Positions 1,359 through 13,197 of a stretch of DNA of 13,197 bases are shown here, piece by piece. This DNA comes from a virus (lineage: Duplodnaviria > Heunggongvirae > Uroviricota > Caudoviricetes): the IMG/VR virus record IMGVR_UViG_2703718841_000007; one strand, 5' to 3'. Position 1 is the stretch's first letter, and the number at the start of each line of letters is the position of its first letter. The notes beneath the pieces were generated by a model. It worked only from the letters and a program-made list of their open reading frames with translations. It was not told the DNA's origin and searched no databases. Made by a program: the position numbers and the translations under genes.

Positions 1359-1425
1359 TATCCCACCACGCTGTTAAAATTTTGTTTCGTCTTACTTAGC
1401 ATTTTTAAGTTGCCCATCGGAAAAA

Positions 1426-1695
1426 CGTCACAACCATCACGCCCCACAAAAAAAACCATTAACCATCTGATTATCATGAATAAATGTTGTGATGGTAAAA
1501 CCATCACAAAACGTAACGTAAACCGTCACACCCTATAAATTCAGCGAGTTATAAAACAGAGTTGTGATGTTTTAAGGCCGTCACACTGTGATGCTCTTGT
1601 GATGCTCTTGTGATGGTTTTCAATATATGAATTTACTTATACATATCATATAGATAAATGATATTTTTTAAATCTGTGATGTTTGTGACGGTTTT
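1426..1695. repeat. Iteron-like array: at least 12 copies of TGTGATG(G)/TGTGACG(G) in both orientations, with a near-perfect 25-bp palindrome and an AT-rich tract
   Basis: Read directly. CGTCACA 1426-1432 and ACCATCAC 1433-1440; palindrome GTTGTGATGG-TAAAA-CCATCACAA 1486-1510; CGTCACA 1524-1530; GTTGTGATG 1561-1569; tandem TGTGATGCTCT x2 (1587-1608) then TGTGATGGTTTT (1609-1620); TGTGATG 1675-1681 and TGTGACGG 1684-1691. AT-rich tract 1621-1672. No ORF of 60 aa or more. Confidence 0.6.
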
Positions 1696-1943
1696 CCGAT
1701 GCTCCCCCTAAATTTTTGAAAAAATTAGAAGTGGTCAGAAATCACCCTGATTTGTTGGTGGTTTTGTATATATCTCTGTTAGTGATTTGAGCATTGGTGC
1801 AGTACGTTAATGTAGGTACTGCCCCAGCCCGGTGTCCCGCTGTGCCGGGATGAACGCGATCTCGTCCATCTGGCTGTCAAATCCCTGCATTGCCCGTCTG
1901 GGCATGTTCGCAATGAGAAAATCGGTTAATGCCGTTAACTGGC

Positions 1944-3406: not shown

Positions 3407-4108
3407 TTACTCGCCTGCCGGAGGCGCGACAGGTGCCCCGATAGCTACCGCTTCTTCCGCCTCACCCAGACGGGTTTCAATAGCAGATACGCGCTTATCA
3501 ATGGCATCCAGCGCTTCAGCCAGCGCCTGTAAGGCATCAGACTGTGAAGGTTCCTGCTCCGGGGTCTGCTCCGGTTCTTCGATACTGAAAAAATGGCGCC
3601 AGCCCTTTTTCGCTGTCTTTGACATTCCCTTTTCCTTTTTAAATTCCCTGACTTCATCAAACGCCAGCGGCTTGTATGGTCCGATGCGTTTTCCCCTGGT
3701 GCGGCTGAAACGTAACCGTGTGGTGCTTACCCCGGCCGGACTGTCAGTAATGGCCAGTCCCTCAAGATAGGTTTTCCCGGTATTTCTGAAATTGCCGTCC
3801 GGTGTAAACTCCGGTGATAAAAATAAAAGCTGACCGTCTGCATTTGCCTGTAGCAATGAAATCGCCGGACAGAGGCGGGCATATAAACGAAGAATACCTT
3901 CATCATCCCGCTCGGCTTTTACTTCCAGCACCTCCCCCATATTCCCGAAATTACGGGAATGTTCCGGCCATAACAGCGCGGTATACAAAGAGGGGTCATA
4001 TAATTCAGCGGCATCAAGCAACCATTGTTCTTCAATAAATCGCTTATCAACCGTTTCACCCGCAGTGGCGATACAAATCCAGTTTGTTGCCAGTTGTGAA
4101 CCTGACAT
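3407..4108 (-). CDS. P2 gpO-like capsid scaffolding protein/protease
   Basis: GKTYLEGLAITDSPAGVSTTRL and a C-terminal coiled-coil-like region (EALDAIDKRVSAIETRLGEAEE) resemble the gpO family. The track ORF starts at GTG 4168, but the ATG at 4108 has a perfect GGAGG 5 nt upstream and is preferred. Shorter than my recollection of P2 gpO (about 284 aa). Confidence 0.7.
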   Translation of the reverse strand: MSGSQLATNWICIATAGETVDKRFIEEQWLLDAAELYDPSLYTALLWPEHSRNFGNMGEVLEVKAERDDEGILRLYARLCPAISLLQANADGQLLFLSPEFTPDGNFRNTGKTYLEGLAITDSPAGVSTTRLRFSRTRGKRIGPYKPLAFDEVREFKKEKGMSKTAKKGWRHFFSIEEPEQTPEQEPSQSDALQALAEALDAIDKRVSAIETRLGEAEEAVAIGAPVAPPAGE

Positions 4109-4251
4109 ATTGCCTCCGTTCATGCTGCGGTTTTCAGTATCGCCAATAAAATTAACCGCCGCATTCACTTCATTTCGGATATAGGCTATTAGCCGAACAC
4201 ATCAGAAATAAAGCGGGATTTAATATACAAACGCCCGTGCATAATGTGTGC

Positions 4252-5496
4252 ATGGCTAAATATTCAGAAGAATTAAAAGGCGTTGCGCGGGCGCTTTATT
4301 TAAAACGCTATACCCCGCAGGAAATTGCCAGCGAACTTAATCTGCCTAACAGACGCATTGTCTATTACTGGGCGGAGAAATATTGCTGGGCGGAATTACT
4401 CAGTCATGAATCCACCGAAGATGCATTAAACCGTCGCATTCAGTCACTGACATTACGTGAAGGGAAATCGGAGCTGGAGCTGCGGGAGCTGGACAGTCTC
4501 GTTTCTCACCTGGTGAAACTACGTGCACAGCACAATAAGCATCAGGAAAAGCTGGCAGAAATTAAACACAGTGAAAATGATGCGCCGGCGCGTCAGTCCG
4601 GTGGCGACGAAAAGCCCCGGAAACGTGGCAAGTACAAAAAGAACGACATCAGCGGACTGACACAGGAAGATTTTGACCGGTTCGCGCTGGAGCACCTTTT
4701 CGGTTACCAGAAACACCTTCGCGCTAATCTTCATCAGCAAATCAGGAACATCCTGAAAAGCCGCCAGATTGGTGCAACCTGGTATTTCTCAATAGAAGCC
4801 TTTGAGAATGCGGTCATGACAGGCGATCCGCAAATCTTCCTGTCCGCATCAAAGGCTCAGGCGGAAGTATTCCGCAGCTATATCGTCAACATTGCGGAGC
4901 AGTATTTCGGCGTGGAGCTGACGGGAAACCCCATCCGCCTCTCCAACGGCGCGGAGATGCGATTCCTGTCCACCAACAAGAACACCGCCCAGTCATACAG
5001 CGGCCATCTGTACTGCGATGAATATTTCTGGGTACCCAACTTTGCAAAATTAAACGAAGTGGCCAGCGCGATGGCCACACACGACAAATGGCGAACCACC
5101 TACTTTTCCACCCCCAGCAGCAAAACGCACCAGGCGTACCCGTTCTGGACTGGTGAAGAATGGAAGCGCGGTGACAAAAAACGCGCGCGCGTACAATTTC
5201 CCACGGAGAAGGAGCTGCGCGACGGTGGACGGTTATGTCCTGATGGGCAGTGGCGCTACATCATCACAATGGAAGACGCGATCGCAGGCGGGTTTAATCT
5301 CGCCAGCATCGGGAAGCTGCGCAACCGCTACAACCGCGACACTTTCAACATGCTGTATATGTGCGTGTTCGTGGACAGCAAGGACAGCGTATTTTCGTTC
5401 TCTCACGTAGAACGCTGCTGTGTAGATCCGGATATGACAATGAAGCGGAACACTGGACGCTCCCGATTGACCGGCTGGCGCTGGCGCAACTGGTGA
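4252..5496 (+). CDS. P2 gpP-like terminase large (ATPase) subunit, C-terminally truncated; probable pseudogene
   Basis: N-terminal HTH-like region, then KSRQIGATWYF (Walker A-like), FLSAS, DEYFWVP (Walker B-like) and YFSTPSS...PFWTGE typical of the gpP family. Family resemblance stops near 5427 (...HVERCCVD) and the ORF ends after a 23-aa unrelated tail. It has about 415 aa against about 590 in P2 gpP (recalled), so the C-terminal nuclease domain is absent. The GTG at 4237 is an alternative start. Confidence 0.65.
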   Translation: MAKYSEELKGVARALYLKRYTPQEIASELNLPNRRIVYYWAEKYCWAELLSHESTEDALNRRIQSLTLREGKSELELRELDSLVSHLVKLRAQHNKHQEKLAEIKHSENDAPARQSGGDEKPRKRGKYKKNDISGLTQEDFDRFALEHLFGYQKHLRANLHQQIRNILKSRQIGATWYFSIEAFENAVMTGDPQIFLSASKAQAEVFRSYIVNIAEQYFGVELTGNPIRLSNGAEMRFLSTNKNTAQSYSGHLYCDEYFWVPNFAKLNEVASAMATHDKWRTTYFSTPSSKTHQAYPFWTGEEWKRGDKKRARVQFPTEKELRDGGRLCPDGQWRYIITMEDAIAGGFNLASIGKLRNRYNRDTFNMLYMCVFVDSKDSVFSFSHVERCCVDPDMTMKRNTGRSRLTGWRWRNW

Positions 5497-6332
5497 ACCT
5501 GAACGCGCAGCACGGCGGTGTGCTGTATGCCCGTCGCAATATGGTGACGGCAAACTATAAAGACGGCGGACTGACGCATGAACAGCTTGGTGCAGCCGTG
5601 TTCGACTGGCTGACCTTCGGTGATGTGGCCATTCTGAAAGTGCGTAACGGCTGGGGGGATGTGGTGGCACTGTACCCGCTGCCGGCACTCTATACCCGCC
5701 AGCGTAAGACCGGGGAGTTTGTGGTACTGCAGCAGGGTGAACCGATGATTTATCCGCCTGAAGATATTATTTTTCTCAGGCAGTACGATCCGCAACAGGC
5801 GATTTATGGTCTGCCGGATTATATCAGCGGTATCCATTCTGCCCTGCTTAACGGTGAGGCAACAATTTTTCGTCGGCGTTACTACCATAACGGCGGACAC
5901 ACAGGTGGCATGATCTACTGTAACGACCCAAATATGACTGATGAAGTGGAAGAAGAAATTATTCAGAAGCTGGAGCAGTCAAAGGGGATCGGGAACTTCA
6001 GCACCATGTTTGTGAACATCCCCAAAGGCGATCCGGACGGCATCAAATTTATCCCGATTGGGGATATCAGCGCCAAAGATGAGTTTCAGAACATCAAGAG
6101 CATCAGCGCCCAGGACGTACTGACCGCGCATCGATTCCCGGCAGGACTGGCGGGGATTATCCCGACGAACGGCGCAGTAATGGGAGATGTTGAGAAAGCG
6201 TCCAAAACCTACCGCAAAGCAGAAATTTTGCCCATTCAGCGCATGTTTACCGCCGCAGTGGAACAGGAAAGTGATGTACCGCCCCACCTGTACCTTAATT
6301 TCCTGAAAGACAGTGAGCTGGAAGGTGATTAA
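5361..6332 (+). CDS. P2 gpQ-like portal protein, N-terminally truncated and out of frame with the upstream P-like ORF; probable pseudogene
   Basis: IYGLPDYISGIHSALLNGEATIFRRRYYHNGGHTGG and the downstream KGIGNF...DGIKFIPIGDISAKDEFQNIKSISAQDVLTAHRFPAGL resemble the gpQ portal family. Resemblance begins about 25-35 residues into this frame-3 ORF, which overlaps the end of the frame-1 P-like ORF. The listed start is a GTG chosen by the ORF caller, not a credible initiation site. Confidence 0.6.
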   Translation: MRVRGQQGQRIFVLSRRTLLCRSGYDNEAEHWTLPIDRLALAQLVNLNAQHGGVLYARRNMVTANYKDGGLTHEQLGAAVFDWLTFGDVAILKVRNGWGDVVALYPLPALYTRQRKTGEFVVLQQGEPMIYPPEDIIFLRQYDPQQAIYGLPDYISGIHSALLNGEATIFRRRYYHNGGHTGGMIYCNDPNMTDEVEEEIIQKLEQSKGIGNFSTMFVNIPKGDPDGIKFIPIGDISAKDEFQNIKSISAQDVLTAHRFPAGLAGIIPTNGAVMGDVEKASKTYRKAEILPIQRMFTAAVEQESDVPPHLYLNFLKDSELEGD

Positions 6333-6385
6333 TGTTCGCAAAAAGGCTAAAATATCATCGTTTTCCAACTTCCGGAGCGATGGAT

Positions 6386-6661
6386 ATGCGGGTAATGAAG
6401 GTTTACTGTCCGGTATGTGAGGCAAGGGCTGTTATCAAAAAAACAGCCCGAAAACACAAGGAACTGTCGGATTTATATTGCGCGTGTACCGATGTTGAAT
6501 GTGGTCACACTTTTGTGATGAATATGACATTCTCACATACCATCAGCCCCAGCGCCAAATCCAGCGATGCGTTGATCGCCACTATCTGTAACAGCCTTGA
6601 TATCCAGCAAAAGCAGCTGATGTTAAAGTTTCTGAGTCAGGACGGCACTGCTGCCGCATAG
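6386..6661 (+). CDS. ogr: Ogr/Delta-family zinc-finger late-gene transcriptional activator
   Basis: Exact C-x2-C-x22-C-x4-C spacing (CPVC...CACTDVEC) as in P2 Ogr. The ATG at 6386 has GGAG 8 nt upstream. The frame is open from the ATG at 6332, which overlaps the portal stop as TAATG; another ATG at 6395 would give an MKVYCPVC N-terminus, closest to Ogr. Confidence 0.8.
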   Translation: MRVMKVYCPVCEARAVIKKTARKHKELSDLYCACTDVECGHTFVMNMTFSHTISPSAKSSDALIATICNSLDIQQKQLMLKFLSQDGTAAA

Positions 6662-6800: not shown

Positions 6801-7520
6801 ATGTTAATAGTCTCAGTTCTTAAATGTAGTAAAGAGTTTACCCCTAAACACGCCCAATGGCTTCATCGTCAGTTCAAAGATATTCCATCTATATGTTTAA
6901 CCGATGCAGATAATATTCCTGGAGTTAACACAACCCCTTTGCTTTATAACTGGCCGGGATGGTGGTCTAAAATTGAACTATTTAATCCTAATCACCCAGT
7001 CCTTGGAGACCAAGATTTACTCTATTTTGACGTAGATGTTGTGGTCACGGGAGATATTCATATTTTCGAAGGTGCGAAGAAATTTACAATGCTTCGGGAG
7101 TTTAACCATGCCTCAAGAGTAAACTCATCAATAATGATGATTCCGGCGTCGATTAAAAAGACGATTTGGGAACAATTCATTATTGATCCTGAGAAAATTA
7201 TGCGCAATTGTCAGACTGAAGACAAATGGGGTGATCAGGGATTTCTCGGTAGCATCATAAAACCAGCCCTATGGCAGGATATCATTCCTGGCTCAATTGT
7301 TAGTTATAAATGTGACATCGCCACCCCCTCGATGATTGGCTTCAATGCAAATTTAGCCTCTGAGGCTGCGACAGGGAAAGTCCCTGATAATGTGGCGGTT
7401 GTTTGCTTTCATGGCAGTCCACGCCCCTGGCGTACTGGTTTTGATTGGGTTCCTTCGTTTTCCCTGCGGGATACTCTGTACGGTAAATTAAAGAACTTTA
7501 AAATAAGAATGAAGCAATAA
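6801..7520 (+). CDS. GT-A-fold glycosyltransferase-like protein (GT8-like DxD and H-x-G-x-x-[KR]-P-W motifs); accessory/cargo gene
   Basis: LYFDVDVVV (DxD, about residue 75) and CFHGSPRPW (about residue 212) match the two signature motifs of retaining GT8-type transferases (LgtC/WaaJ type), with similar inter-motif spacing. Strong Shine-Dalgarno. AT-rich relative to neighbours (60-nt lines hand-counted: 6841-6900 has 24 G+C, 7141-7200 has 21 G+C). Convergent with the primase gene. Confidence 0.5.
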   Translation: MLIVSVLKCSKEFTPKHAQWLHRQFKDIPSICLTDADNIPGVNTTPLLYNWPGWWSKIELFNPNHPVLGDQDLLYFDVDVVVTGDIHIFEGAKKFTMLREFNHASRVNSSIMMIPASIKKTIWEQFIIDPEKIMRNCQTEDKWGDQGFLGSIIKPALWQDIIPGSIVSYKCDIATPSMIGFNANLASEAATGKVPDNVAVVCFHGSPRPWRTGFDWVPSFSLRDTLYGKLKNFKIRMKQ

Positions 7521-7588
7521 AGATAACGCCCCTATTGCTTCAATGTTCGCTCCTTCCCCTAACAATAAAGTTAGGCACTAGTGAACCG

Positions 7589-10246
7589 TTACTTTTCCCG
7601 GCCAAATATCCAGCAGCGGAATGTTTCCGGCATCCGTTGCATATCCCCTTTACCACGATTATGGCGCTCACTTACCGCGCTGCGCGTGGTGCTTTGTCTG
7701 ATAAACCGGCGCTCATTGCCGTTTTTAAGCAGCTTTTTAATTTCCGTTAACGTGAACGGAATACGCTGCCGGTGTGCTGCGGCGACCTCTTCCATGTGAT
7801 TGAAATTAACCGCGATTTCATTTTCATCTGATGAATGATTGATGCCATAAGGTGCCAGTTCATCCAAGTAATCAAACAGCTCCCAGAACTCCTGCACCAG
7901 AGGATGATCCTTTTTAAGTGCCTGACAACGTTCAACGGCCAGCGCGGTGATGGCTTCACGCGTTTTTTCTATACGTTCAACCGGCACCGGTACAACAAGT
8001 GCAAGCGCCTCCAGCAAGCCCACAAGCTGCGCGTGATTCTTTGCAATACGGATATGGCGAATACTGCTATTAGACTCCAGCTCATTCCTAGCTCGCTCGT
8101 ACCCCCTGCCGAACGTCTGCATGATTTCTTTTTCGCGCATGGTGGCCAGTAATGTGAATCCGGATACCTGGCTAACGGGGAGTTGTTCAAGTCGTTCTGC
8201 AGCGTGGCGCGTCTGAATGGACTGGCCGCGCTTGTCGGTATAGATGTGGATGATACGCTCCAGAAACGCCTTGCTGCCGTCTGTGTCGGCATTTTGCGCT
8301 ATCACAATACTTCCCCTGAACGGCGGCTCATACGTCTCGTTATTGTTCGATTTGATACCCACGGCGCGGGAGGCACGACCGTTATACAGTGATTTCAGCT
8401 CGTCCCAGTCAAAAGCGCGTTGCTTGGCGTTATCGGTAGTACGGTCGCCCTCAATCAGCACAACCGGCAGATTACCGACCTGGGCGAAGTTACGGCCACG
8501 CGCGGCGGCGGTAGATTTAGATGGGTCAAACCCTTCGTATTCCTCACGGCCGGCGAGCTTCCAGAGAAATTCTATCAGCGTGGATTTACCTGTCCCCGGC
8601 TCGCCCACGATTTCCAGAAACGGAAATGACTTGTCACGCTCGCGGATTTGTTCGGCAAACAGCGACCCCAGCCAGAACGCCAGAGCCACATACCCTTTTT
8701 CACCAAATGCCGTCCAGATATCGTCTACCCAACCCGTAGTAAACTCGTTCAGCTTCGGATTCAGATCCAGCGCCGGCGTGAGGCTCAGGCTCTTAACACT
8801 GGCACTGTTGATTTCGAAGTAATCCTCGTCGTTCATCTCATACAGCCGGCCATCGCAAACGGCCACGCGGTTAAACAACCAGGCGGCATAATCCTTGTTA
8901 TAGCCGATGAAATTCTGCGTCTTTACCTCTTTGATTTCAGGGAGGCGCATCTGGATGAACTTATCCAGCTGTTTGGTGCTGCCTGTGTACACCGCCCCTT
9001 TGGCGATGTGCAGCAGACGCTTTTTGAACTCGGCGGAGCTGGTGAGCTGATTAGCCGTGAAAGTATCTTTCACGGCTGGCCGGTTAGGCATACTGACTTT
9101 CACGTAATACCAGGACTCGTCCGTAGGTTCAGACCGCTGAAAGTAAAGCGGCGTCAGCCAGCAGTTAGCTATTTCGGTCACGCCGCCTGACTCTTTAACC
9201 GCCCGTTCTTTGGCCTCCCACTCCATCACCACTTCGGTACCGGTATTGGTGATGCGCTCATAGGCTCGCATATACCTGTCCAGATCCAGCTCAAACCAGT
9301 ACATGCGGGAGTTATGCTCAAAGTAGAACGAGTGCCACTCGTTATGCTGATGCATGAGCAGCGCTTTCTCAGTCGGGCTTTTTGCCAGAAGGAGATCGCC
9401 ATAGTAGCGATAATTTTTAATGTCCGACTTACTGAACCGGTTACGTAACAACAGGTCATTCCAGTCCAGCGATGCCGATGATTTCACCGGCTGCGCGGCA
9501 CGAGTTTTCCATCCTGCAGCATCACTACGGGCAGCGAACGCCAGTGTGTGCTTTGTGCCGGCTTTATCGCCGTCAAACGCCCATACAAGACGTGGACGTG
9601 GTTTTTCACCCAGTTCTTTGGCCAGCGTATCCAGTGCGGCCAGCGGATAGTTGTTACTGCTCAGTGTGGCAACTGCAGGTAACCCTGCCTGGCACAGACT
9701 CAGCGCGTTGAAGATTCCCTCAGTGATCCAGATTTCGTTCACTTCCTGCAGGTTGATAAAGGGAGGAACCCACCAGTGACCGACATAGCTTCCCCTGATG
9801 TTGGCTTTCTGCTTACCGAAGCGCTGCGGCTGGTCAATGATGCGCTCCCATGTTGCACCGCATGACAGCGAAAATCTGACCGTTGCCGACCCCATGCCAT
9901 CTTTCACGAATGCACCCTGGGTAAAACAGCCTTTTAATGGCTCAGTCTCCAGCCCTCTGGCCTCGCGCAGATACGCCTCAGCTACTGCATGGGGGTTATC
10001 TTCTGTGGTCTGGTAACGTTTTGACCAGTCTTCAAAGATATCCGGATACAGCTCTTTCACGACAATCTGATGTGCGCAGTTATTTTCACGGCCACATTTC
10101 AGAATCCAGGGCTTTTCTATGCTGGTAAATAATTCGCGCTTACGACAGGCAGGGCAAACGCCCTGCTGCAAATACTTATCCCGCTCTTTAAATTCAAAGT
10201 CCCGAACAAGACGGCGCACAACGTCCTGTTGTATCGTTTCGTTCAT
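7589..10246 (-). CDS. P4-alpha-type bifunctional DNA primase/helicase (zinc-binding plus TOPRIM primase, P-loop helicase, C-terminal domain)
   Basis: CPACRK...CGRENNC zinc motif; TOPRIM-like ITEGIFNALSL and WAFDGDKAG; Walker A IVGEPGTGKST. One 60-nt line (8461-8520) hand-counted at 38 G+C. The ORF is open from TTG 10282; the first ATG is 10246; neither has a good Shine-Dalgarno. This is not a P2 A-type rolling-circle initiator. Confidence 0.8.
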   Translation of the reverse strand: MNETIQQDVVRRLVRDFEFKERDKYLQQGVCPACRKRELFTSIEKPWILKCGRENNCAHQIVVKELYPDIFEDWSKRYQTTEDNPHAVAEAYLREARGLETEPLKGCFTQGAFVKDGMGSATVRFSLSCGATWERIIDQPQRFGKQKANIRGSYVGHWWVPPFINLQEVNEIWITEGIFNALSLCQAGLPAVATLSSNNYPLAALDTLAKELGEKPRPRLVWAFDGDKAGTKHTLAFAARSDAAGWKTRAAQPVKSSASLDWNDLLLRNRFSKSDIKNYRYYGDLLLAKSPTEKALLMHQHNEWHSFYFEHNSRMYWFELDLDRYMRAYERITNTGTEVVMEWEAKERAVKESGGVTEIANCWLTPLYFQRSEPTDESWYYVKVSMPNRPAVKDTFTANQLTSSAEFKKRLLHIAKGAVYTGSTKQLDKFIQMRLPEIKEVKTQNFIGYNKDYAAWLFNRVAVCDGRLYEMNDEDYFEINSASVKSLSLTPALDLNPKLNEFTTGWVDDIWTAFGEKGYVALAFWLGSLFAEQIRERDKSFPFLEIVGEPGTGKSTLIEFLWKLAGREEYEGFDPSKSTAAARGRNFAQVGNLPVVLIEGDRTTDNAKQRAFDWDELKSLYNGRASRAVGIKSNNNETYEPPFRGSIVIAQNADTDGSKAFLERIIHIYTDKRGQSIQTRHAAERLEQLPVSQVSGFTLLATMREKEIMQTFGRGYERARNELESNSSIRHIRIAKNHAQLVGLLEALALVVPVPVERIEKTREAITALAVERCQALKKDHPLVQEFWELFDYLDELAPYGINHSSDENEIAVNFNHMEEVAAAHRQRIPFTLTEIKKLLKNGNERRFIRQSTTRSAVSERHNRGKGDMQRMPETFRCWIFGREK

Positions 10247-10285
10247 AAATAATCCAGATGTGAAATAATGGGTAAAAGGCAAAAA

Positions 10286-10504
10286 CTATATTCTGTACTG
10301 CTTGTTATATCGCTCATGTGTCATTAGTTCCCAGCTTCTGCCCTTATCCTTACTCAGTAATCGCCAGCGATAAGAAACATAAACAGAGAAATAATGTTTT
10401 GGCTTAATAACCTGATATACCTTTTTGCCGTTGTAATATTCTGTCAGCACTGAAAATGCCTTGTGAATGACACTTTCACTTGCATGAGAGGTCACTGTAA
10501 GCAT
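10286..10504 (-). CDS. Hypothetical protein (72 aa), AT-rich
   Basis: ATG start 2 nt after the exonuclease stop; ends 3 nt before the primase ORF. No family recognised. Lys/Tyr/Arg-rich. Confidence 0.45.
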   Translation of the reverse strand: MLTVTSHASESVIHKAFSVLTEYYNGKKVYQVIKPKHYFSVYVSYRWRLLSKDKGRSWELMTHERYNKQYRI

Positions 10505-10506
10505 CG

Positions 10507-11076
10507 TTATTTCACACTGGCTATTTTTACAAGATACATCCAGACATAAGAAACAACTTTAGCCTGATGAATGGCATCATATAAAGCGTGATGTTTAACA
10601 CCATCAAACTTAATAATATTACGAACATTCAGCCCAAGTGTTTTTGACAGTTCAACAACCGTTCTTACATCACGGTCATTCCAGTAGTACCAAAGTGGAT
10701 CGGCAAACCCGCATTTCTCTGATGCATTACGTAAAATAACATTGTCGAACGCTGCACTATTCCCCCATACCTGTACTTTAGATGGGTCAGAATGCTCAGT
10801 AATAAAAGCTTCCAGATTAGCTAACGTCAGAGGCAAGTCCAGACAATCGTCATTAAGCAGCTCGCTACGCGCTTCGGCATCCTGACGCATCCACCATAAT
10901 ACGGTTTCTGACCCCATAGTGAGACCGTGGCCTACACAGCTGCCCAGGCTGACACGTTGATAAAACTGTTCACCCATTTCGCCAGTTTCAGGGTCAAAGA
11001 ATACAGCACCGATAGAAGCAATCGCAGAAGTCGGTTTATTATCCATTGTTTCAAGGTCAATCATTAAATGTTTCAT
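10507..11076 (-). CDS. DEDDh-type 3'-5' exonuclease (DnaQ/RNase T-like fold)
   Basis: Exo I MIDLET (D-x-E), Exo II WGNSAAFD, Exo III HHALYD (H-x4-D). AAGGA Shine-Dalgarno 8 nt upstream of the ATG. AT-rich (line 10561-10620 hand-counted at 19 G+C). Confidence 0.7.
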   Translation of the reverse strand: MKHLMIDLETMDNKPTSAIASIGAVFFDPETGEMGEQFYQRVSLGSCVGHGLTMGSETVLWWMRQDAEARSELLNDDCLDLPLTLANLEAFITEHSDPSKVQVWGNSAAFDNVILRNASEKCGFADPLWYYWNDRDVRTVVELSKTLGLNVRNIIKFDGVKHHALYDAIHQAKVVSYVWMYLVKIASVK

Positions 11077-11085
11077 ATCGGTTCC

Positions 11086-11421
11086 TTAACGTTGGGAAGC
11101 TGCAACAGATTTAAGATGCGAGTTATTACTTTTTAACGCTGTGGTAGCCAGCGACATAAGACCGGAAATGTTATTTTCAGTTGGTATATTTCCGCCAAAT
11201 ACCATAAGCGTGATTTTGTGCAGTTCTTCAAAATCATCACTATCATTATTAAAGCGAGCAGTGGAGGTTATACCCTCAAGGCATTTTGCAAGCTGAATGT
11301 TTAATTCCATTAACTGCAAGCCATCGCTATGTACAGAGAATGTTTCTTTATCAATGGTTTTTGCCTGAGCGTGATAGTTTTGCAACAGACTACGAATCAG
11401 CGTGGCATATTTAGTCTTCAT
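11086..11421 (-). CDS. Hypothetical protein (about 111 aa), AT-rich
   Basis: The ORF is open from TTG 11433; the ATG at 11421 has a GGGGA Shine-Dalgarno 7 nt upstream. Its stop is 9 nt before the exonuclease start. No family recognised. Confidence 0.45.
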   Translation of the reverse strand: MKTKYATLIRSLLQNYHAQAKTIDKETFSVHSDGLQLMELNIQLAKCLEGITSTARFNNDSDDFEELHKITLMVFGGNIPTENNISGLMSLATTALKSNNSHLKSVAASQR

Positions 11422-11447
11422 GATAATCCCCAATAATATTTAGTTTA

Positions 11448-11729
11448 CTAACGAGCACTTTTATCTTTCGTGAATAAACGGTTCTTCCAGTCATGCCATT
11501 CAGGCGGGGCAATTTGAGCCAAATGAATGGCATAAGCATCCCATTCCCCCCGATGGATATAGATTTCCCCACCTTTTTTTGATGGATTTAGAGGGTCTTT
11601 CATGCGGATTACCGGCAGTTTTCCAGCCGTGGCCATTTTGCGAATTGCAGCAGGCGTTTTGCCTATATATTCGGCAAAAAGCTCAGGGGTCACCAACTCT
11701 GAAAGCGCCTTTTCTGCTGGTTCCTTCAT
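11448..11729 (-). CDS. cox: P2 Cox-like excisionase/switch repressor
   Basis: 93 aa with AGKLPVIRMKDP, corresponding to the KLPVIDM region of P2 Cox as I recall it. It is transcribed divergently from the C-like repressor and is the first gene of the early operon, as in P2. Confidence 0.7.
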   Translation of the reverse strand: MKEPAEKALSELVTPELFAEYIGKTPAAIRKMATAGKLPVIRMKDPLNPSKKGGEIYIHRGEWDAYAIHLAQIAPPEWHDWKNRLFTKDKSAR

Positions 11730-11837
11730 CTGTGGTATCCTTCGTTAGTTTGGGTTCCTAGGGCGCTTTAAGTCGTTCTAGGGTTCTTTTGTCAAGGTTC
11801 TTTTGTAAGAACCAATAATAGTTGCGATACAAGAACC
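11730..11837. promoter_or_regulatory. Immunity-switch intergenic region with operator-like repeats between cox and the C-type repressor
   Basis: Read directly: GGTTCTT at 11782-11788 and 11796-11802; perfect inverted repeat GGTTCTT-TTGT-AAGAACC at 11796-11813; a further AAGAACC at 11831-11837 abutting the C start codon; direct repeat GTTC(C)TAGGG at 11753-11763 and 11775-11783. Confidence 0.6.
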
Positions 11838-12137
11838 ATGTCAAGAAATTATGCGGAGAAACTCCGGCAGATCCGGAAAGCTGAAGGGTTAACTCAAAAA
11901 GATTTTTCAGAGCTTACTGGGGTAGCTCTTGGAACAATAAAAAAGTACGAAACTGGCCATCAGCCAGCTCGTGCAGAAGTCTTAGAAAGTGTTATAGAGG
12001 TACATATGTTTGAAAAATATACACTCTGGTTAATGACAGATAAGACGGCACCAATTGCGGGGCAGGTGTCCCCGTCTCTCTCCCCTGATGGGCAAGACAA
12101 CATAACATCATCCCGTTCCACCCGGAAAATTGGCTAA
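11838..12137 (+). CDS. P2 C-type immunity repressor (small XRE-family HTH protein)
   Basis: 99 aa, the same length as P2 C. HTH LTQKDFSELTGVALGTIKKYETG and the KYTLWLMTDKTAPIAGQVSP segment match my recollection of P2 C (KYTLWFMT...). Lies upstream of and co-directional with int, as in P2. Confidence 0.8.
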   Translation: MSRNYAEKLRQIRKAEGLTQKDFSELTGVALGTIKKYETGHQPARAEVLESVIEVHMFEKYTLWLMTDKTAPIAGQVSPSLSPDGQDNITSSRSTRKIG

Positions 12138-12203: not shown

Positions 12204-12464
12204 ATGTCGATTAAGAAGCTTGATGATGGTCGTTTTGAAGTGGACGTTAGACCGCGCGGAACCTCAGGAAGAAGGATTCGACGCAAATTTGACAGAAAGG
12301 CGGAAGCACAGGCATACGAGCGGTATGTACTGACAAACTTTCACGATAAAGAATGGCAGGATAAACCCGCAGACAGGAGGCTTGTATCCGAGTTAATTTC
12401 TTTATGGTGGAGCTACCATGGAAAGAATCACAACTATGGTGACTCATATAAAAAGCGTTTGGAA
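12204..12464 (+). pseudogene. int: Tyrosine integrase, N-terminal arm-binding domain fragment (frame 3), separated from the catalytic part by a +1 frameshift
   Basis: MSIKKLDDGRFEVDVRPRGTSGRRIRRKFDRKAEAQAYERY is a typical phage integrase N-terminal domain. GGAGGG Shine-Dalgarno 7 nt before the ATG at 12204. The reading frame switches inside the A7 run at 12463-12469. Confidence 0.65.
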
Positions 12465-13197
12465 AAAAATCAACCGAGAAATGGCGGAACCCAGAGTGTA
12501 CGAGCTTACCCGCAACTTTCTGATGAAATATCGTGCAGAACGACTTCATAGTGGAGTATCTGCTGGCACGGTAAACAGGGATTTCTGTTCCATGTCCAGC
12601 ATGTTCAGTTTGCTGATAGATATGGAAGAATTTCATCACGAAAACCCGTTTCGCGCCGTGAAGAAGTTACGTCTGGAAAACACAGAAATGTCATTTCTGT
12701 CCGAAGAAGAGATCCACCATTTGCTGAATGCCCTTACAGGGGATGATCGCAGAGTTGTCGTTCTTTGCCTGAATACAGGAGCACGATGGGGTGAAGCCAG
12801 TAATCTTAAAGCTGAAAACGTGATAAGTAACCGTGTGACCTTTGTTAAGACCAAAACCGGCCCAGCTCGTACTGTTCCGATATCGAAGGAAATCGCGGAC
12901 TACATCCTTACACGCAAATCGGGGAAATTGTTCGATACCAACTATGAGCGAGTTCGCGATGTTCTTCGTAAGATTAAGCCAGACTTGCCGAAAGGTCAGG
13001 CACTGCATGTTTTACGCCATACCTTCGCAACACATTTCATGATCAACGGCGGGAATATCATCACGCTACAGCGTATTTTGGGTCATACAACAATCGAGCA
13101 AACAATGACATATGCTCACTTCGCCCCAGATTATCTGACTGATGCCATACGATTTAACCCTATGCGTGGGAGTGTCCACATAATGTCCACCGACTAG
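12418..13197 (+). CDS. int: Tyrosine integrase, core-binding and catalytic domains (frame 1); C-terminal part of the frameshifted int
   Basis: Catalytic signatures TGARWGEA (box I Arg) and HVLRHTFATHFMINGGNIITLQRILGHTTIEQTMTYAHF (H-x-x-R and Tyr region). The stop codon is the last three bases of the window. The ORF's own ATG at 12418 is internal to the gene. Confidence 0.85.
   Translation: MERITTMVTHIKSVWKKINREMAEPRVYELTRNFLMKYRAERLHSGVSAGTVNRDFCSMSSMFSLLIDMEEFHHENPFRAVKKLRLENTEMSFLSEEEIHHLLNALTGDDRRVVVLCLNTGARWGEASNLKAENVISNRVTFVKTKTGPARTVPISKEIADYILTRKSGKLFDTNYERVRDVLRKIKPDLPKGQALHVLRHTFATHFMINGGNIITLQRILGHTTIEQTMTYAHFAPDYLTDAIRFNPMRGSVHIMSTD

Follow-up and report, generated by a model that had tools for sequence, protein, structure and literature searches.

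An intact primase-helicase gene of the P2-like phage 'DNA primase' family in a decayed Escherichia coli prophage, with a candidate iteron origin

The stretch of DNA analysed here, called the window, comprises 13,197 nucleotides of the IMG/VR virus record IMGVR_UViG_2703718841_000007 and corresponds to a part of the Escherichia coli chromosome between raiA and pheL. Its minus strand carries an uninterrupted open reading frame (ORF) at 7589-10282, 897 codons counted from a TTG, which is a real, intact primase-helicase gene and the last gene of a Cox-led early (Pe) operon (Table 1). Very probably, this gene encodes the replication protein of a P2-like prophage of the Evevirus type that is now defective.

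The analysis of the reading frame favors a start downstream of its mechanical limit. The TTG at 10282 is merely the first possible start, a few bases past the stop of the upstream gene, whereas the ATG at 10246 agrees with RefSeq (through a 99.9% identical copy in strain PK5), with gp29 of Escherichia phage ESSI2_ev239 and with the conserved M1 of the family alignment; the 885-residue product of the ATG is thus the likeliest protein. Pfam reveals Toprim_3 (E 6.6e-11) and Toprim_2 (E 4.6e-10) at residues 184-280 and the P-loop domain DUF5906 at residues 558-666 (E 1.6e-4, under the curated cut-off), both in the numbering of the 897-residue form, with the Walker A sequence inside the DUF5906 region, while NCBIfam yields a weak DnaG Toprim match only. 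In an alignment of 70 sequences that are 48-94% identical to the window protein, by the numbering of the 885-residue form, C31, C34, C51 and C57, the Toprim residues E176, D225 and D261, and the ATPase residues K554, E599, N652 and R664 are invariant. The window copy keeps every family-invariant zinc, Toprim and ATPase residue among more than 100 invariant alignment columns, and the description in the initial annotation of a zinc-finger, TOPRIM and P-loop primase-helicase of about 890 residues is thereby borne out. The zinc-ribbon region gives no match to Pfam Zn_Ribbon_Prim and is a four-cysteine ribbon of a different kind. Conservation within the family is highest in the ATPase and lowest in residues 691-885; this last part is presumed to bind DNA by analogy with Staphylococcus aureus pathogenicity island (SaPI) Rep and with Cch2, and its low conservation would fit, if only weakly, a role in origin specificity.

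Table 1. Features of the window (positions in the 13,197-nucleotide stretch; residues in the numbering of the 885-residue protein)
Feature	Position	Strand	Remarks
Acyl_transf_3 acyltransferase	144-1331	plus	low GC, attL end; annotated O-acetyltransferase in ESSI2_ev239
Candidate origin	1404..1712	none	TGTGAYG heptamers in two orientations (11 of 13 in the window); AT-rich core
Junction of ~14-kb deletion	1790..1815		tail and lysis genes gone, relative to ESSI2_ev239
ORF	3407-4168		gpO fused to stub of N
Junction of ~1.2-kb deletion	3443..3451		capsid gene N and 3' end of O gone
ORFs	4237-5496 and 5361-6332		truncated P and Q
Junction of ~0.7-kb deletion	5433..5435		truncated terminase gene P fused to truncated portal gene Q
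Ogr_Delta (PF04606)	6332-6661
239-residue protein, PHROG 1962 'glycosyltransferase'	6801-7520	plus	low GC, variable slot between ogr and primase; absent from ESSI2
Terminator-like hairpin and T-run	7510..7542	minus	just past primase stop
Primase-helicase gene	7589..10246	minus	885 residues from ATG at 10246; mechanical ORF to TTG at 10282
C-terminal helical bundle and winged-helix-like domain	7592..8176	minus	residues 691-885; AlphaFold2 secondary structure
AAA+/P-loop ATPase	8177..8731	minus	residues 506-690; Walker A GEPGTGKST, E599/D601, N652, R664
Beta-rich N-terminal domain of helicase half	8732..9436	minus	residues 271-505
DnaG-type primase core	9437..10060	minus	N-subdomain (residues 63-164) and Toprim (residues 165-270; E176, D225, D261)
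Zinc-ribbon	10061..10189	minus	residues ~20-62; C31, C34, C51, C57; AlphaFold2 beta-ribbon
ParE-like ORF, 72 residues	10286-10504	minus	PF24732, E 2e-16; PHROG 1525
DnaQ-like 3'-5' exonuclease	10507-11076	minus	Pfam Rv2179c-like
orf115	11086-11433	minus	early operon
cox	11448-11729	minus	Pfam Phage_Cox (PF10743)
Pe-like early promoter	11815..11844	minus	TTGACA-18-TATTAT, 11/12; faces C repressor gene
C repressor (99-residue helix-turn-helix protein)	11838-12137	plus	divergent from early operon
int frameshift	12418-12551

Comparison with phage proteins places the window protein in PHROG 1139 ('DNA primase'), which it matches from end to end (E=0; residues 15-896 against profile positions 2-890 of 895). 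A tblastn search of phage genomes returned 40 full-length matches to it, with identities of 94.6% to ESSI2_ev239 gp29, about 47% to the proteins of Ralstonia RSY1-type phages, 41% across 881 residues to phiCTX ORF37 and 40% to Smp131, in agreement with the earlier statement that P2 relatives of other genera employ this type of protein. ESSI2_ev239 is a 29.2-kb phage of the Peduoviridae, genus Evevirus, whose gene order (int, C, cox, orf, exonuclease, primase, ogr, Q, P, O, N, M, L, tail) is that of the window. Queries with P2 gpA, P2 gpB and HP1 Rep found nothing in the window by tblastn, nor were gpA or gpB homologues found in the complete relative ESSI2_ev239, and the primase stands in the A/B slot; the claim that replication here is not the P2 A/B system therefore holds. 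HP1-type Rep, which had been put forward for comparison alongside P4 alpha, proved an unsuitable reference, being a gpA/HUH protein (Phage_GPA, E 6e-127) and not a primase. With the end-to-end match, an early operon devoid of gpA and gpB and the full set of invariant residues all present, the window protein is orthologous over its full length to the 'DNA primase' that complete P2-like phages encode, and its gene is the orthologue of the only large replication gene of the complete phages ESSI2_ev239 and phiCTX, which lack gpA and gpB.

The family is common in intact elements. Prophages with all genes at full coverage were found in Pseudocitrobacter, Salmonella and two Enterobacter genomes, their primases 96-98% identical to the ESSI2 protein, and a 63% identical version occurs in intact-looking Citrobacter prophages beside pheL, on the same side and at the same locus. 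In Providencia, a prophage arranged in the classical P2 gene order has a primase of the PHROG 1139 type where gpA would stand. The protein collection gave scores for more than 2000 homologues, and species-representative genomes contained at least 545 loci; family members are annotated as 'DNA primase', 'toprim domain-containing protein' or 'bifunctional DNA primase/helicase'. The gene is already annotated: RefSeq calls it either a toprim-domain protein or a bifunctional primase/helicase, a named genus of E. coli phages carries it as standard, and the Smp131 and RsoM1USA papers refer to it just as a DNA primase by prediction. Identity to the ESSI2 primase is 95%, yet int, C, ogr and the exonuclease are just about 43-61% identical, and the early region has therefore been shuffled gene by gene within the lineage.

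The surroundings of the gene are of P2 type, with homologues of gpL, gpM, gpO, gpP and gpQ in the window, and the C/Cox/Ogr context named by the initial annotation is confirmed by the helix-turn-helix repressor and the PF10743 and PF04606 matches. The strong Pe-like promoter at one end and the hairpin after the primase stop at the other delimit an operon of cox, orf115, the exonuclease, the ParE-like ORF and the primase-helicase, and the gene order upstream of the primase (10286..11729) is the same in ESSI2 and in the Citrobacter prophages. The ParE-like ORF lies directly upstream of the primase gene and is kept at the same place in the Citrobacter prophages; an obvious antitoxin partner was not seen. 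The acyltransferase and PHROG 1962 genes resemble surface-polysaccharide-modifying (serotype-conversion-type) morons.

Alignment of the window to ESSI2_ev239, by which the lesions were mapped, indicates that the element is a 13-kb remnant of a prophage of about 29 kb of the Evevirus type. Its compact size results from three deletions that cut through genes, the largest of which probably took cos as well; the DNA beyond the repeat array is also missing, and the element is now unable to make or package virions; since the virion genes are lost, the primase gene is a still-intact passenger of a decaying prophage. Among 5426 complete E. coli genomes, 19 carry the primase gene in copies that are all >99% identical, and four of these are damaged: one by an internal stop, two by a 952-bp deletion and one by truncation. 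The strains differ in what they have lost. PK5 keeps full-length P and Q but lacks the tail genes, and the ORF annotated as its capsid gene is, at 1773 nt, abnormally long; YPE10 keeps some tail genes and has the internal stop in its primase gene; PSJ-12 is 100% identical to the window save for the 952-bp deletion within the primase gene; and in E89 the primase gene is reduced to the part matching 1493-2694 of the window gene, with an IS100 in the same locus. Such varied lesions at one locus are those of ordinary prophage decay and not of a satellite. A satellite would be compact, would carry helper-hijacking genes and intact ends, and would not be a deletion derivative of a phage; the window holds no psu, sid or epsilon-type genes, and satellite identity was rejected in view of the three deletions, the frameshifted int and the other deletions of the sister strains.

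The label 'P4-alpha-type' given in the initial annotation holds for the architecture of the protein and fails for its family. BLASTP against P4 alpha produced two short colinear patches only, one over the Toprim domain (33% over 99 residues, E 0.004; EGIFNAL aligned with EGYATAL and DGD with DRD) and one over Walker A (35% over 63 residues, E 0.002), and hhalign found one 142-column Toprim match at 52% probability, with sensitivity limited by the shallow P4 profile, whose members are at least 85% identical to P4 alpha. The Pfam domains of P4 alpha are Zn_Ribbon_Prim (PF08273, E 1.9e-18), Toprim_3, D5_N, DUF5906 and Pox_D5. Toprim_3 is found in both proteins, with the EGxxxA and DxD motifs, whereas Zn_Ribbon_Prim, D5_N and Pox_D5 occur in none of the 36 diverse family members scanned; DUF5906 is present in 26 of them, every time below threshold, and DUF927 in a single one (E 9e-5), the window protein itself having no DUF927 match. 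What the window protein lacks, then, is the Zn_Ribbon_Prim ribbon, the D5-type SF3 helicase of D5_N plus DUF5906, the Pox_D5 domain, with which P4 alpha binds its ori through a C-terminal winged helix, and similarity over the full length.

Searching the PDB by sequence, whether with the protein alone or with the 70-sequence profile, gave weak DnaG Toprim matches only, which made structure prediction necessary. The AlphaFold2 model built from the 70-sequence alignment (mean predicted local distance difference test score 88.7, predicted template modelling score 0.68) returned structural-match figures of about 13 for MCM, 12.9 for SaPI5 PriRep, 12.4 for vaccinia D5 and 8.5-9.6 for the large T antigens of SV40 and JC virus. 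Foldseek ranked the matches alike (Cch, E 9e-17; SaPIbov1 Rep, E 1e-11; D5, E 4e-4), and the modelled helicase half fits the Cch/SaPIbov1-Rep fold far better than it fits D5-type helicases. Among the predicted viral structures of BFVD, the neighbors were Toprim and DUF927 proteins, several of them annotated DUF927, and neither P4 alpha nor phiCTX ORF37 appeared in the top 50. Two families of initiator helicases have been distinguished, a DUF927 family with Cch and SaPIbov1 Rep, which is MCM-like, and a D5_N/Primase_Cterm family with Cch2, SaPI5 Rep and many primase-helicase fusions (PMC7581432). P4 alpha belongs with the latter by its D5_N and Pox_D5 domains, while the helicase half of the window protein, as modelled, groups structurally with the former. 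The model presents the N-terminal 270 or so residues as a zinc-ribbon and Toprim primase of the DnaG/T7-gp4 type and the C-terminal 560 or so as an initiator helicase of the Cch/SaPIbov1-Rep ('MCM-like') type with a winged-helix-like domain, in which the three parts of that fold (N-domain, AAA+ ATPase and C-terminal DNA-binding domain) can be recognized. Given this predicted placement on the Cch side, the protein is best described as a DnaG-type zinc-ribbon/Toprim primase fused to what appears to be a Cch/SaPIbov1-Rep-like initiator helicase.

A candidate origin lies at the left end of the element, between the acyltransferase gene and the first deletion junction. The sequence TGTGAYGNTTT occurs there in six copies at 1422-1694, three per strand, where 0.04 would be expected, and the heptamers clustered at 1426-1690 (265 bp) surround a stretch of 85.7% AT at 1620-1675. 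The array is conserved copy for copy in ESSI2_ev239 at 28384-28656, with six 11-mers in the same arrangement, and the window's early region holds no other repeat cluster. The left-end acyltransferase and the repeats are phage DNA, since the same order is found in the ESSI2_ev239 genome record; the view of the repeats as host DNA was rejected, as they lie inside the prophage and are present in that record. A scan for at least four to five copies of one 8-mer inside 350 bp recovered ori and crr of P4, the R3 repeats of phiCTX and a 12-copy array in the E. coli island L008 described below; nothing came up in P2 or in the HP1 early region, and simulated genomes never exceeded three copies. Across 80 related loci, 10 of 18 iteron clusters lay at most 1.5 kb downstream of the primase gene, against about 1.3 expected from sequence share, and together with the scan controls this supports a general link between the primase family and iteron arrays. 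When viral contigs were scanned for the palindromic iteron pair, all matches proved to be copies of this one E. coli element, and no diversity was gained. The repeats noted at 1426-1695 in the initial annotation are thus real and an iteron-type origin is plausible, while the theta-type initiation proposed with them would follow from analogy only; the array at 1404-1712 with its AT-rich core is the most likely origin, a placement that we hold at about even chances.

Other repeat blocks were observed in relatives. A second cluster in ESSI2_ev239 (26741-27090; CGTCCACA in five copies) lies between int and the O-acetyltransferase gene and probably marks arm-type Int sites or Cox sites of attP; the corresponding region falls outside the window. 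In phiCTX, six copies of AAGGTAAT at 35050-35510, the annotated R3 repeats, lie between attP and cos, and Smp131, at 11041-11390 of its sequence as scanned, has a similar block of four copies of AGGTAACA between attP and cos; these could be the origins of the two phages or packaging-related arrays.

A further array accompanies a homologue of the window protein in an E. coli island. In GCA_011890865.2 (island L008, 5593-17471, between gcd and hpt), a compact island of about 12 kb encodes a 51% identical primase-helicase, just after which a 12-copy CGGTTACA array flanks AT-rich DNA. Besides this gene, the island carries those for two integrases, one of P4 type, for AlpA, an Icd-like product, Ogr/Delta and a PemK toxin, and for a capsid protein of the P2 family with 423 residues. 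Of the 5426 complete E. coli genomes, 40 contain at least 80% of the island and 488 contain parts of it. It may belong to a satellite type not yet described, or it may be one more remnant of a prophage.

The mechanism of the replication protein can be proposed by analogy. SaPI Reps use a C-terminal winged-helix domain to bind 6-12 iterons, which lie to either side of an AT-rich core; they open the origin in an ATP-independent manner and load themselves, probably as two hexamers (PMC9371898). Self-loading, a winged-helix domain at the C-terminus and an AT-rich core flanked by iterons are features of the Rep/Cch class (PMC9371898, PMC7581432). Once the C repressor is lifted, Pe would transcribe cox, the exonuclease and the primase-helicase. 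The protein would then recognize the iteron origin and melt the adjoining AT-rich DNA, load itself as hexamers without a loader, unwind 3'->5' and prime for the host Pol III, giving bidirectional (theta) initiation.

Several observations weigh against this reading of an Evevirus-type replication protein acting on the left-end array. The placement in the Cch-like fold rests on a predicted structure, the literature yielded no biochemical data on the primase family, and copies in sister strains are already broken, so that selection on the gene is not in evidence here. On the phage circle, some 4.6 kb separate the array from the primase gene, whereas in SaPIs and many relatives the iterons are directly downstream of the gene; the array also adjoins the termini of the ESSI2 record, which is linear, so that cos may be close by; blastn-short searches for P2-, P4- and phiCTX-like cos in the window and in ESSI2 found nothing convincing, with RSY1 as the positive case. 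Nor does similarity of the C-terminal domain track the iteron sequence, as proteins encoded beside the same GGTTACAA iteron have about 36% identity in this domain, no higher than pairs with different iterons. The points on the array would also be expected if the protein were the replicase and 1404-1712 were not its origin, the array being a cos-adjacent packaging array or a set of sites for Cox, Int or another regulator and the origin lying elsewhere, for example inside or beside the gene. The phiCTX block (R3-R6), a comparable repeat array, flanks cos and favors this alternative, to which we accord a substantial but less than even probability. Against it, P2 has no such array near cos, and the terminase here is of the P2 family; the core between repeats in both orientations (86% AT) resembles SaPI and P4 origins; in relatives with P2 gene order, the arrays adjoin the primase gene and are some 2 kb away from where cos is expected; the L008 island has its 12-copy array but no terminase genes; and no second cluster competes in the window's early region.

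Whether the gene matters to its host today is a separate matter. It may be an inert relic, intact only for lack of time and with no consequential activity in the strain, a view that we consider possible but doubtful. The few near-identical carriers with their damaged copies and the deletions and frameshift in the rest of the prophage speak for it, as does the pattern in defective P2/P4 elements, in which replication genes are the core genes most often pseudogenised (PMC13586616); against it, the window shows no damage to the reading frame, promoter, repressor gene, cox or catalytic residues, and the view concerns present use and not the identity of the gene. Far less probable is the view that a P4-alpha-family primase-helicase was gained by module swap and marks the element as satellite-like. 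The shared order of zinc motif, Toprim, P-loop and C-terminal domain, the weak colinear patches, the sub-threshold DUF5906 matches and the homologue in a compact 12-kb island are in its favor, but they are outweighed by the failure of BLASTP and hhalign to find full-length similarity, the three P4 alpha domains missing in 36 of 36 members, a predicted fold nearest to Cch and SaPIbov1 Rep and a small size that comes from deletions in an element without satellite genes. The reading of the module swap as a satellite trait is further undone by ESSI2_ev239 and the intact prophages, as close full-length homologues prove standard in complete P2-like phages of the same host, the very finding that the initial annotation had named as telling against it; its interpretation overall is partly supported. 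Least credible of all is co-option as an anti-phage defence or another non-replicative Toprim ATPase. PADLOC does report weak matches of the Toprim segment to 'RTasDnaG-like' models associated with defence-associated reverse transcriptases (E 4e-7), and P2-like phages have defence hotspots near the replicase, but the matches span the generic Toprim domain only, and complete phages have, as their sole replication gene, an orthologue of the window gene in a syntenic position.

For this window, the replication-protein identity of the gene is of little importance beyond the removal of a false satellite lead. Two labels are corrected, as HP1 Rep is of the gpA type and the helicase half is Cch/SaPIbov1-Rep-like and not P4-alpha/D5-like, and an origin candidate is gained for a replication module that is widespread in P2-like phages yet biochemically unstudied; a search that takes gpA as the mark of a P2-like prophage will miss modules of the PHROG 1139 type. 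More speculatively, PHROG 1139 might represent an uncharacterized Gram-negative initiator class, combining a DnaG-type primase, a Cch/SaPIbov1-Rep-like self-loading helicase and iteron origins, that is exchanged as a module between complete P2-like phages (Evevirus, Citexvirus and many prophages) and E. coli islands of about 12 kb, possibly undescribed satellites. If so, the phage-satellite link would be real at the level of the family, though not for this window.

The comparison with known systems sets the window protein closest to phiCTX ORF37 and ESSI2_ev239 gp29, with which it shares full-length orthology, the position at the end of the early operon and a phage background without gpA and gpB; nothing substantial differs, apart from a host prophage that is defective here and flanking int, C and exonuclease alleles that are mosaic, with about 50% identity to their ESSI2 counterparts. 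P2 gpA/gpB and HP1 Rep, which are HUH rolling-circle initiators, fill the corresponding slot of the P2-like early operon but are unrelated proteins with an unrelated mechanism and show no similarity to the window protein. P4 alpha resembles it in the N-terminal Cys motif, the DnaG-type Toprim primase, the P-loop helicase, the C-terminal domain and the iteron-type origin, and differs in length (777 residues against 885), in the lack of detectable full-length homology, in carrying the three Pfam domains that the window family lacks and in its helicase, which is of the D5 class and not of the Cch/DUF927-like fold class. SCCmec (staphylococcal cassette chromosome mec) Cch (5dgk) and SaPIbov1 Rep (8tch) have just 11-13% sequence identity to the window protein, come from staphylococcal-island hosts and not from phages of Proteobacteria, and lack a fused Toprim primase; SaPIbov1 has a separate primase of the AEP family, and in Cch-type SCCmec operons a canonical primase had not been identified. 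In joining the two activities in one chain, the window protein has its counterparts in SaPI5 PriRep, vaccinia D5 and T7 gp4, which are other fused primase-helicases.

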